Positions 6,602-8,654 of a DNA stretch of 64,000 nt are shown here, piece by piece. The stretch is from Escherichia coli (lineage in GTDB: Bacteria > Pseudomonadota > Gammaproteobacteria > Enterobacterales > Enterobacteriaceae): the NCBI RefSeq assembly GCF_044324785.1, contig NZ_CP172127.1. The stretch is one strand, 5' to 3'. Below the pieces are notes generated by a model, which searched no databases, was not told where the DNA came from, and saw only the letters and a list, made by a program, of their open reading frames with translations. The stretch's first letter is position 1. The number at the start of each line of letters is the position of its first letter. The position numbers were made by a program, and so were the translations under genes.

Positions 6602-6927
6602 TATTGACCTCCGGTATTGCGGTACTGCTGTACCACTTCCAGTTTGTTGTAGAGCGCGTCCAGTTTGGCCTCGATGACTGTCTGGCCACGGATATAATCC
6701 TCGCGACGGACATAATTCAGCGGTAAATCCGCTTTAAATCGCATAAATTCTTTTTCCAGTTCGCCCCAGTTGGAGGCGGACTGTTGCAGGGCCTGCTCAA
6801 GGGAGGCGAATCGTGCCGCCTGGCGTTCTTCTGTTTTACTGAACAACCATTTGGCGAGCCCTCCCACAAACCCCATGAAGGTGAGCAAAAAACTCACCAC
6901 CGTCCAGAATTCAACCTGCAGTGTCAT
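6601..6927 (-). CDS. phage membrane protein (single N-terminal TM segment)
   Basis: 108 aa ORF, hydrophobic stretch FWTVVSFLLTFMGFVGGLAKWLF then coiled-coil-like region. Confidence 0.4.
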   Translation of the reverse strand: MTLQVEFWTVVSFLLTFMGFVGGLAKWLFSKTEERQAARFASLEQALQQSASNWGELEKEFMRFKADLPLNYVRREDYIRGQTVIEAKLDALYNKLEVVQQYRNTGGQ

Positions 6928-7535
6928 TTCTGTAATCCTTCCCGTTCATCCAGTAGCGCGTTTATCTGGTTTCGCCAGCGACGACATTGCCCTGCGTTGT
7001 CGATGATGTTGGCAAGGACGTCAAGCTGGGAGACACCCGAATTGCGTAACCGGGCGTCAGCGGTTTCAGGTTGCCCGGTCGCTGCGCCAGTGCCGGTGCC
7101 AGCGGCGGCAACTGAGTCTGAATGACCGGTGTCGACGGATGCGTTGTCGTATCCGAGTGCGGCGTTGTACTGGCGCACGAAACCGCGAGTAAACACGCAC
7201 TCAATGGGATGGCTCTTACCTTTTTCATCAATCCAGCGCTGTGTGACATCGTTAATTTGCCCCTGTAGTTGTTTGTTCTGGTCCTCCAGTTGAGCAATCT
7301 GCTCAAGATAACCAGCTTCAGCCCGTTGCCCGGCGGCTACCTGCTCCTGATAACGCTCAGACCATGCGCGCAACGCCGCCACCTCACGCCGGGCCTGTTC
7401 TGCCCGGTATCCGTCAAAATCCGCCTGCAGGCGGCTGAGCGCCGCCTGACCGTCAGCGGAGGCCCGGTCGTGGCCTGTGCTGTATCCCAGCCACCAGATC
7501 GCCAGCAGGAAGGTGTTCAGGAGAATGGCCAGCAT
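6924..7535 (-). CDS. Rz-like i-spanin
   Basis: ORF 6924-7679; likely start at Met giving MLAILLNTFLLAIWWLGY (TM anchor) followed by Gln/Ala/Glu-rich coiled coil; located after endolysin. Confidence 0.45.
   Translation of the reverse strand: MLAILLNTFLLAIWWLGYSTGHDRASADGQAALSRLQADFDGYRAEQARREVAALRAWSERYQEQVAAGQRAEAGYLEQIAQLEDQNKQLQGQINDVTQRWIDEKGKSHPIECVFTRGFVRQYNAALGYDNASVDTGHSDSVAAAGTGTGAATGQPETADARLRNSGVSQLDVLANIIDNAGQCRRWRNQINALLDEREGLQK
6962..7228 (-). CDS. Rz1-like o-spanin lipoprotein embedded out of frame inside Rz
   Basis: Internal start MKKVRAIPLSACLLAVSCAS (signal plus Cys lipobox-like) then Pro-rich mature region; ORF entirely inside Rz in another frame. Confidence 0.45.
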   Translation of the reverse strand: MKKVRAIPLSACLLAVSCASTTPHSDTTTHPSTPVIQTQLPPLAPALAQRPGNLKPLTPGYAIRVSPSLTSLPTSSTTQGNVVAGETR

Positions 7536-7563
7536 AATGACCCGCCACGGCAGCGACCGTAAC

Positions 7564-8301
7564 TTACGTACCCACACAGCTTGCCCCTCCCCATGAGAGA
7601 TAACGCGGGGCCAGCGTGAACAGGATGCGCTGGGGATAATGACGGTTCTCCCGCCAGCTGGCAGTGCTGCGTCCGGCATTCACCGTGGCGACATGACCAA
7701 ACCAGCGGGTGCTGTCCAGCCCTTTTTGTGATGCAAGCCGCCTGTCCCGCTGTACCCAGCCCAGACCACCGTTATAGCCCGACAGTGTCATGGCCATACG
7801 CTCGCAGTCACTGGCGGCGCTGACGCGCTGCCACAGCCAGCGGTCATAGCTGACCAGCGCCCGGATGGCCCATGCCGGATTAAATGGCTCACGGCTGTTA
7901 AGCCCCGGCATCAACTGACTTATCCAGTCGGCGGTGGCGGGCATGAACTGCGCCAGTCCCTGAGCGCCAACCGGCGAGATCGCATCAGGTCGCCAGCCGC
8001 TTTCCTGATGCAGTTGCGCAGCGAAATCAGCCACCGGCGCAGACAGTCCCCATTCAAGCCGGGCATTACGGATCACATCATCGCGATACTGCAGCGCTGC
8101 CTGCGGAGGCTGCGCTGCGCGGGCCTGACTGAAGAAGCCGCCACACCAGAGCAACATTGCGACAAAGAATACCCGTGCCATATGAACCAGAAAGGTCCCG
8201 GCGCGGACTGACAGGCGTTCGGTTCTGATGAAGACCCTAAAGGCTTCGAAAGCCAGTTTCAGGGACATGCATACAATCCAGGTGATCTGCGGCCAGTTCA
8301 T
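7564..8301 (-). CDS. lytic transglycosylase endolysin (SLT domain), possibly signal-anchor-release type
   Basis: 245 aa; motifs ...QESGWRPDAISPVGAQGLAQFMP... typical of SLT domain; hydrophobic N-terminal segment MARVFFVAMLLWCGGFF. Confidence 0.7.
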   Translation of the reverse strand: MNWPQITWIVCMSLKLAFEAFRVFIRTERLSVRAGTFLVHMARVFFVAMLLWCGGFFSQARAAQPPQAALQYRDDVIRNARLEWGLSAPVADFAAQLHQESGWRPDAISPVGAQGLAQFMPATADWISQLMPGLNSREPFNPAWAIRALVSYDRWLWQRVSAASDCERMAMTLSGYNGGLGWVQRDRRLASQKGLDSTRWFGHVATVNAGRSTASWRENRHYPQRILFTLAPRYLSWGGASCVGT

Positions 8302-8303
8302 GA

Positions 8304-8654
8304 TTAAAGCCCCATCGCAACAGCCAGACAGACCGCTGCAACAATCAGTGCACGGCGGATTAACGCAGCAGAAAACACCAGGTGAAGGCCGGTCTGTACC
8401 GGGAAACGCCCATCAGCCATCAGCCTGTCGTCATGTTTCAGGTACTGACCGGGACGGGCTTTGGGGAAGAGCGAACGGTCAAGCCAGTAACCCAGCACTG
8501 CTGCCAGCGTGATGAGTGCCAGCTTGTAGATCACAACAGGCAACTGCTGTGGCGAGACCAGAGCGATGGTGCCCAGCAACAGCACTGAGGTCAGCAGCCA
8601 GCCGCTGAGGCGAGGTTTTTTAACAGGGGGAATGAATTTTTTCAGGTTTTTCAT
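8304..8654 (-). CDS. small membrane protein, first gene of lysis cassette (holin-like candidate)
   Basis: ATG at 8654 with AAGGAG 6 nt upstream; 2-3 predicted TM segments; directly upstream of endolysin. Confidence 0.4.
   Translation of the reverse strand: MKNLKKFIPPVKKPRLSGWLLTSVLLLGTIALVSPQQLPVVIYKLALITLAAVLGYWLDRSLFPKARPGQYLKHDDRLMADGRFPVQTGLHLVFSAALIRRALIVAAVCLAVAMGL

Follow-up and report, generated by a model that had tools for sequence, protein, structure and literature searches.

Genes 21-25 of Burkholderia phage BcepMu (Summer et al. 2004, J Mol Biol 340:49; NC_005882) are the described lysis system closest to the one considered here, with the same gene order and the same families. 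The BcepMu record labels them holin, endolysin, Rz, 'Rz1, out of frame, embedded proline-rich protein' and inner-membrane protein gp25, followed by gp26, the small terminase TerS gp27 and the large terminase TerL gp28. The order of genes 21-28 is repeated gene for gene in a tightly packed run of minus-strand genes, delimited with a list of open reading frames (ORFs) and with family searches, at positions 8687-4225 of the window, which is the whole analysed stretch of 64,000 nucleotides from Escherichia coli (contig NZ_CP172127.1 of assembly GCF_044324785.1). The block at 8654-6601 within this run probably serves a BcepMu-like (Bcepmuvirus) transposable prophage as its late lysis module, with a holin, an exported endolysin and a two-component spanin. 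Its architecture is already known and publicly annotated, the BcepMu arrangement since 2004 and the spanin family in the spanin catalogue of 2018, and the cassette is an ordinary member of a catalogued type.

A sequence-only reading of this DNA had proposed a lysis cassette with an SLT-type endolysin and an Rz gene with embedded Rz1. All of its ORFs were found on the minus strand at the coordinates it gave, and the cassette was confirmed by the Pfam SLT and phrog_1403 matches and by the conservation of Rz1. The features are as follows, where TMD stands for transmembrane domain.

8654-8304, minus strand: holin-family membrane protein, 116 residues, PF13272 / phrog_1528
8301-7564, minus strand: SLT endolysin, 245 residues, Pfam SLT / phrog_669
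8116-8301, minus strand: two-helix membrane module, endolysin codons 1-62, of the phrog_5479 type, ending ...LLWCGGFFSQ-A60-R61-A62
7577-6924 (maximal ORF 7679-6924), minus strand: i-spanin (Rz equivalent), 217 residues, phrog_1403
7228-6962, minus strand: o-spanin (Rz1 equivalent), 88 residues, embedded in the +1 frame of Rz
6927-6601, minus strand: BcepMu gp25-like protein, 108 residues, N-terminal TMD, phrog_462
6601-6290, minus strand: 103-residue protein, phrog_436
downstream of 6290, minus strand: Mu gp27-type small terminase, then large terminase, both from family searches

Two features set the locus apart from BcepMu: gp22 of BcepMu carries a single short N-terminal signal (MRVLIAFVVALLGAAAPVAA/QVP, the slash marking the presumed cleavage site here and below), whereas the window enzyme begins with a 62-residue two-TMD module, and the window Rz1 lacks the second periplasmic Cys of its BcepMu counterpart. 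Next closest is the B3 family of Pseudomonas phages (B3, JBD67 and H71; Beetrevirus and relatives). B3 ORF25 has the same fused two-TMD module ending in GGFF, and B3, JBD67 and H71 have a holin and an embedded spanin family homologous to those of the window, together with a gp25-like homologue in B3 and JBD67; in H71, a DUF2730 gene replaces the gp25-like gene. H71 and JBD67 differ in having a separate 52-residue module gene and an endolysin with a signal of its own (MKRLLTLGLLGLLSAC...AFA/TD), and the Pseudomonas phage cassettes contain an additional small basic ORF between endolysin and Rz.

Phage Mu resembles the window in its late gene order (endolysin, spanin pair, a protein of about 100 residues with an N-terminal TMD, gp26, gp27, gp28) and in having an endolysin (gp22) that is exported rather than cytoplasmic, with spanin genes gp23/gp23.1. 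Unlike the window, it has no holin, its muramidase carries a proven signal-anchor-release (SAR) domain rich in Gly, Ala, Ser and Thr (G/A/S/T), and its gp25 is a DUF2730 protein (PMC9239132). The Rz/Rz1 pair of lambda likewise combines an i-spanin with N-terminal TMD and coiled coils with a Pro-rich o-spanin lipoprotein embedded in the +1 frame (Kongari et al. 2018, PMC6139136), but it has no detectable sequence similarity to the window pair, and the window lipobox has Ala at -3.

Holin, catalytic domain and spanins

The sequence-only reading had described the cassette as lacking a canonical holin, and this does not hold. The ORF at 8654-8304 matches PF13272 (Holin_2-3) over its full length (141.8 bits against a cut-off of 27, E 1.1e-41, profile positions 1-106 of 106) and phrog_1528 'holin' (E 6e-55), is 53% identical to BcepMu holin gp21 in pairwise alignment, and is named 'putative holin' in RefSeq. 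Its ATG start is preceded by AAGGAG, and hydropathy places three hydrophobic segments at about residues 17-35, 40-58 and 92-115. The protein is predicted to adopt an N-in/C-out topology, unlike lambda S, in which a Lys-rich cytoplasmic N-terminus would be followed by a first TMD, a short periplasmic loop SPQQLP and a second TMD, and the C-terminal part would comprise a charged cytoplasmic loop, a conserved RR pair and a short TMD. The ATG of the endolysin lies 2 nt past the stop codon of the putative holin, and a Holin_2-3 gene stands directly upstream of the endolysin in every relative examined.

A Mu-like, tail-only element of Salmonella Infantis SARB27, located next to lysC (L010:2593-3815; STM4216-4219 region), retains Mor, a Holin_2-3 gene, a leader-deleted SLT gene and a gp25-like gene, with tail sheath and tube genes directly after them. 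The element, in which spanin and head genes are missing, is possibly a tailocin-like remnant. As annotated, its SLT protein has no export signal (it starts MTFLPADAAEPP; MTFLPADA/AEPP...) and would thus need the holes of a true holin to reach the wall, which is an indirect argument for a holin.

The 245-residue endolysin matches Pfam PF01464 SLT (53.5 bits against a cut-off of 21.3, E 2.1e-14) and phrog_669 endolysin (E 5e-67), and its residues 72-242 are 61% identical to both BcepMu gp22 and the H71 endolysin. Glu478 is the catalytic residue of E. coli Slt70; Glu100 of the endolysin aligns with it (HQE100SGW against RQE478SAW) and is invariant across 27 endolysin relatives. Judged by its sequence, the enzyme is an SLT lytic transglycosylase with Glu100 as the predicted catalytic residue.

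The Rz-like ORF matches phrog_1403 'Rz-like spanin' (E 7.4e-88) and is 30% identical to BcepMu gp23 (E 4e-10). Its start is most likely the GTG at 7577, six bases past GGAGGGG, which gives a protein of 217 residues; the GTG, the GGAGGGG and the initial VW..LPWR recur at the start annotated for KP12, PhiKM and further E. coli copies, and this start adds MWVRKLRSLPWR ahead of the TMD. With the RefSeq start in strain SK1144 (ATG 7535), the basic cytoplasmic end is lost, and the product is labelled 'hypothetical protein'; elsewhere among E. coli records, it goes by 'lipoprotein' or 'lysis system spanin subunit'. In the 217-residue form, a basic N-terminus precedes a TMD (about residues 13-31), and the periplasmic part is a coiled-coil domain; the protein so shows the N-terminal TMD and periplasmic, largely helical domain that characterize an i-spanin.

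The embedded Rz1 ORF, for which RefSeq has no annotation, runs from ATG 7228 to 6962 and encodes 88 residues (MKKVRAIPLSACLLAVSC/AS...). It consists of the signal MKKVRAIPLSACLLAVS, with lipobox AVSC and Cys18, and a mature part of 71 residues with 11 Pro (15%), 13 Thr and 8 Ser. It lies wholly within the +1 frame of Rz, at 0.53-0.94 L, inside the typical range reported for embedded spanins (from about 0.4-0.5 L to 0.9-1 L; PMC6139136). The +1 open frame by itself is weakly non-random: it extends over 124 codons against a shuffle mean of 72.6, and 3.5% of codon shuffles reach 124. The ORF is intact in all seven enterobacterial copies examined (7/7), and its product aligns with BcepMu gp24 and the proteins of B3, H71, JBD67 and KP12 via the signal, the lipobox Cys and a PP..L..RPG..LTPGY core. 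In this alignment, AVSC corresponds to AAGC of B3 and H71, and a lipobox with Ala at -3 proved functional in a test of AWAC (PMC6139136).

We take Rz1 as real because the signal, the Cys and the PP..RPG..LTPGY core are conserved, rather than because of the length of the open frame, and the embedded proline-rich lipoprotein of the sequence-only reading is thereby borne out in BcepMu, B3, H71, JBD67 and the enterobacterial copies. A lipobox Cys, a short Pro-rich mature part and a position out of frame within an i-spanin gene, the marks of an o-spanin, are all present. The spanins of BcepMu/phiE255 and of B3/JBD are listed as embedded families (PMC6139136), and the window pair is, as predicted from these features, an embedded two-component spanin.

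The endolysin leader and its export

The hydrophobic N-terminus that had been noted on the endolysin is a membrane sequence, but it comprises two segments, not one, at about residues 3-25 and 30-57; by hydropathy, they fall at about 6-24 and 37-55. The AF2 model (mean predicted local distance difference test score, pLDDT, 71) has helices at 3-25 and 30-53 and a break at 54-66. The two segments belong to a unit of 55-60 residues with the motif M-x-x-P-Q-I...L-L-W-(C/W)-G-G-F-F, which has homologues both as stand-alone 52-residue proteins (H71 gp23, JBD67 gp20) and, in fused form, at the N-terminus of the endolysins of B3 and KP12, and which BcepMu gp22 lacks. In H71 and JBD67, the separate 52-residue gene overlaps the endolysin start by ATGA. 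The module has no Pfam family; it matches phrog_5479, labelled 'unknown function', with E 0.0022 for the window allele and 1e-13 to 1e-31 for typical members.

A profile search with the module among 1.84 billion representative proteins yielded 337 clusters at E<=0.001, mostly stand-alone proteins of 52-57 residues, with some tandem duplicates and a few SLT fusions. Of the 119 endolysin clusters closest to the window enzyme, about 100 have the module fused. As far as these sequences go, fusion is the norm in the enterobacterial BcepMu-like prophages (Escherichia, Salmonella, Pectobacterium, Serratia, Pantoea, Dickeya, Morganella), and the fused form is also found in the plaque-forming phage B3. 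No description of the capture of a phrog_5479 gene as a leader, with a conserved peptidase-type junction, was found in the literature searched.

E. coli prophages that are otherwise >90% identical carry two leader alleles, the ends of which are common and the middles wholly unlike in DNA; the swapped stretch lies precisely between the conserved codons for MNWPQIT and those for LLWCGGFF. The junction reads SQACA in the commonest E. coli allele and SQARA in the window allele. An origin of the window allele as a compensated frameshift of the common one was ruled out, as the DNA alignment reveals an unrelated, replaced segment between conserved ends. The difference is, to all appearance of the alignment, a mosaic replacement.

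Stand-alone phrog_5479 genes were also observed in other settings. Xanthomonas phage FoX5 gp66 (L020:2501-2671) and Burkholderia phage Mica gp63 (L019:2495-2665), both of 56 residues, are surrounded by small early genes, a long way from the lysis cassette. For FoX5 gp66, the annotation reads 'lytic murein transglycosylase', a label apparently transferred from fused endolysins, and the same small gene is called 'holin' in some Pseudomonas phage records. On metagenome contigs, stand-alone genes had only unannotated small ORFs as context. From the metagenome, Mica and FoX5 contexts, a general lysis role of the stand-alone genes was not established. The relatives P0196, P0199 and P0202 are tandem duplications of about 105-115 residues, and a 1930-residue protein (P0190) matches the module profile in 21 stretches.

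Export via Sec followed by cleavage by signal peptidase I at a predicted site between A62 and A63 appears likelier than a SAR mode, as judged at the level of motifs. The junction GGFF-S-Q-A-x-A/A-(Q/E)-P-P is almost invariant across the approximately 100 clusters: Ala occupies -3 and -1 (in rare cases Val or Ser), and N, R, H, A, C, S, D, Q and Y all occur at -2. Fixed -3 and -1 positions with a variable -2 are the pattern of a predicted signal-peptidase I site. Relatives with unrelated N-termini also have small-x-small before the same mature start: a Brenneria-type single TMD ends ...GSDA/AQPP, an unrelated two-TMD leader ...KSHA/AEPP, BcepMu ...PVAA/QVP, YO107_2 ...AVA/QVP and B3 ...AKA/DEIP, and the leaders of H71/JBD67 and of the relative P0447 combine a lipobox (LSAC, LSGC) with A/V-F-A. 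In the AF2 model, the A-x-A motif falls in the break between hairpin and catalytic domain. H71 gp24 (L006:2908-3537) and JBD67 gp21 (L008:1268-1897) begin MKRLLTLGLLGLLSAC-QPAFA/TD, with a good lipobox LSAC as well as an A-x-A site, so that they may not be SAR endolysins, but lipoproteins or secreted enzymes with a cleaved signal. On the export of the BcepMu endolysin, literature searches gave no usable functional work, the 2004 BcepMu paper being outside their scope.

The sequence-only reading had suggested a SAR domain, in which case an uncleaved signal-anchor would tether the enzyme until it was set free, either through depolarization caused by a pinholin-like partner or with the aid of a releasin. 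The clear N-terminal membrane segment, with no cytoplasmic-only form of the enzyme, the SAR label of related Pseudomonas enzymes (PMC9239132), the presence of a protein in the releasin slot, and the GG pair in ...WCGGFF..., which resembles Gly-rich SAR segments, all speak for this view. A SAR domain is, however, a single, weakly hydrophobic TMD rich in Gly, Ala, Ser and Thr, and here the whole two-helix hairpin would have to exit the membrane. Its second segment, TM2, which adjoins the catalytic domain, consists to 69% of L/I/V/F/M/W and to only 19% of G/A/S/T, against 56% G/A/S/T and 38% strongly hydrophobic residues in the SAR domain of Mu gp22 and likewise 56% G/A/S/T in the annotated SAR endolysin of phage Mica. 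Moreover, A-x-A is conserved with a variable -2, and unrelated signal types converge on one mature N-terminus. The suggestion is weakened by the composition of TM2 and by the conserved A-x-A, which at motif level comes near to the cleavable Sec signal that the same reading had named as evidence against it, and we regard a SAR endolysin as unlikely.

Clearly less probable still is an internal start at Met41 of the window allele, which would produce a plain Sec signal (MAR-VFFVAMLLWCGGFF-SQARA/A) and leave the first 40 codons as a decayed module remnant. Met41-Ala-Arg, a 14-residue hydrophobic core and A-R-A do make a textbook signal peptide, and the first segment, TM1, of this allele contains K15, E19 and R22 and has a Kyte-Doolittle value of only 1.43 against 1.87 for the KP12 allele. 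Yet the holin stop and the ATG at 8301 are coupled, no good Shine-Dalgarno sequence precedes Met41, and the MNWPQI start and the open frame are retained in all alleles. In addition, Arg43 is Trp in the commonest E. coli allele, whereby the charge of the n-region is lost, and AF2 gives a helix at 3-25 with a pLDDT of about 80.

The gp25-like protein and the course of lysis

The 108-residue protein matches phrog_462 (E 1.6e-36) and is 52% identical to BcepMu gp25. It has an N-terminal TMD at about residues 7-25 with basic residues after it, for which the positive-inside rule predicts an N-out/C-in orientation. According to the family alignment and AF2, a long helix extends from the TMD into the cytoplasm, followed by an invariant LPxxYVRREDYxRGQxVIEAKLD and a final helix. 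The releasin gp25 of Mu has about 100 residues, is N-out/C-in and wholly DUF2730, and in transposable phages its gene lies no more than five genes from that of the endolysin (PMC9239132). The window protein, the second annotated gene product past the endolysin, agrees with it in size, topology and position, but not in family: at E<10, PF10805 (DUF2730) matched neither the window protein nor BcepMu gp25 nor B3 ORF28, nor any of the 23 family members compared (0/23), and hhalign of the 108-residue family against a 16-sequence DUF2730 alignment gave a probability of 1% (E 0.049), with single DUF2730 sequences also negative. A Foldseek search of the BFVD with the AF2 model of the gp25-like protein returned no structural match. 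Two close relatives carry the UniRef label 'DUF2730', which the profile test did not reproduce. With Pfam, hhalign and Foldseek all negative, homology to DUF2730 proteins was rejected.

The role of holin, antiholin or releasin that had been envisaged for the small membrane proteins at 8304-8654 and 6601-6927 thus stands in part: both are membrane proteins plausibly involved in lysis and the former belongs to a holin family, but the latter is no DUF2730 member. The comparison with Mu lys and gp25 that had been proposed along with it was equally mixed, with likeness in the size, topology and slot of the gp25-like protein, but no similarity to DUF2730 and a TM2 unlike the SAR domain of Mu gp22.

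Phages H71 and JBD67 are 87% identical in DNA from holin to Rz, and one slot holds either a DUF2730 protein (H71 gp27, listed in Table S1 of PMC9239132) or a gp25-like protein (JBD67 gp23); no description of this alternation was found in the literature searched. In the Salmonella tail-only element, the gp25-like gene is retained beside holin and SLT genes, although spanin and head genes are gone. Because of the slot swap and this retention, we tie the gp25-like protein to lysis, and a releasin-like or lysis-regulating function is a reasonable hypothesis for it. Whether the endolysin is split or fused was also compared with the choice of DUF2730 or gp25-like protein; a simple link is broken by JBD67, which is split and gp25-like.

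The same evidence could be read as Mu-like lysis without a holin, in which the product of 8654-8304 would be no functional holin and the gp25-like protein would time lysis as a releasin acting on a membrane-bound endolysin. The context-derived holin assignment of PF13272, the size, single N-out/C-in TMD and gene position shared with Mu gp25, and the exchange with a DUF2730 gene between H71 and JBD67 point in this direction. Against it stand the Holin_2-3 gene just upstream of the endolysin in every relative examined, including the Salmonella element with its SLT annotated as signal-less, and the negative DUF2730 comparisons by profile, hhalign and Foldseek, so that we consider it very improbable.

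In the course of lysis that we propose instead, with a holin and an exported, cleaved endolysin, the Holin_2-3 protein would build up in the inner membrane and permeabilize or depolarize it at the trigger time, as its family membership and gene position suggest. The two-helix hairpin would insert the endolysin with the N-terminus out, the loop in the cytoplasm and the catalytic domain out. A presumed cut by signal peptidase I, most likely after A60-R61-A62 and before A63, would then yield a soluble periplasmic enzyme of 183 residues and a membrane peptide of 62 residues, the latter equivalent to the product of the separate phrog_5479 gene in H71 and JBD67. The enzyme would presumably remain harmless until the holin collapses the membrane potential, as does Lys44 of Oenococcus phage fOg44, one of the signal-peptide endolysins that are held inactive by the membrane potential with the holin as timer (PMC6116005). 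Lys44 is like the proposed mechanism in its Sec export, the removal of its signal and a holin that serves as a timing and depolarizing device (PMC6116005); it differs in its Gram-positive host and its single classical signal peptide, whereas cleavage in the window enzyme is presumed and would follow a two-TMD hairpin. The Rz/Rz1 pair would then remove the outer membrane, in accordance with its homology to BcepMu gp23/gp24 and the lambda paradigm. In the weakest step, the gp25-like protein, a membrane-tethered helical protein, would probably modulate holin or endolysin as DUF2730 proteins do.

Several points weigh against this reading. Literature searches found no experimental demonstration of holin function for any PF13272 member, and the family's label appears to come from context alone. 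TM1 of the window allele, with its three charged residues, is only marginally hydrophobic, which makes the hairpin topology less certain than for the KP12 type. Cleavage is argued from a motif, and the cut would come after a second, internal TMD. Related Pseudomonas transglycosylase endolysins are classed as SAR endolysins (PMC9239132), and the restraint of a free periplasmic transglycosylase in E. coli would lack an explained mechanism. The role of the gp25-like protein, finally, is argued from position.

A bolder extension, which we offer tentatively and as possible at most, would regard the endolysin gene as a polyprotein gene, its product cut by signal peptidase I into a holin- or antiholin-like two-TMD peptide and an SLT enzyme, and the gp25-like family as a second, sequence-unrelated class of releasin-type proteins interchangeable with DUF2730.

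Distribution, neighbourhood and significance

Modules of like gene order recur in Pseudomonas phages B3, H71 and JBD67, Ralstonia phage YO107_2, a Pandoraea genome and a metagenome contig. A 2.6-kb stretch of the locus is present in 637 of 5426 complete E. coli genomes, nearly at full length in 631 of them, and is 100% identical in many E. coli chromosomes (SK1144, ABU 83972 and others). The phage records PhiKM (Bcepmuvirus) and KP12 are 87-92% identical to this stretch, the PhiKM copy 92%. RefSeq already names the holin ('putative holin') and the transglycosylase, and in some copies the spanin; a search of NCBIfam placed neither the holin nor the spanins nor the gp25-like protein in a specific family. 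A scan of 6200-9000 found no sigma-70 promoter, and terminator-like sites occurred at chance level, which is compatible with an activator-dependent late operon, yet uninformative.

The window begins within the head genes, so that the prophage is only partly in view. Similarity to the SK1144 prophage copy ends at about 20792, and a PhoX-family gene and IS5-type transposases follow in the window (20793-24500). In SK1144, the same prophage interrupts ssuB, and the differing insertion sites fit a transposable, Mu-like phage. Upstream of the holin lie divergent genes for a 247-residue phrog_3787 protein with a weakly AAA-like N-terminus (8785-9528, plus strand), a 134-residue phrog_2266 protein (9504-9908, minus strand) and a DNA adenine methylase (10314-11078, plus strand). 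The region 8785-11078 varies among E. coli copies, some of which have a gene labelled 'ABC transporter ATPase' or a DUF2441 gene, and has the appearance of a moron or cargo spot with changing content.

Among complete E. coli genomes, about 12% have the prophage, those of ABU 83972 and ST131 strains among them. The endolysin family swaps at least four kinds of N-terminal export signal, all onto one mature N-terminus via a peptidase-type motif, and one of these signals is an independent gene for a small membrane protein, captured by fusion. This swapping suggests that the enzymes are cleaved and secreted, including the Pseudomonas ones now called SAR endolysins. The alternation, in sister phages, between DUF2730 and a conserved protein outside that family in the releasin position lends itself to a natural test of what 'releasins' do where holins also exist. 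If the polyprotein reading is true, one gene would supply both a periplasmic endolysin and a holin- or antiholin-like membrane peptide.

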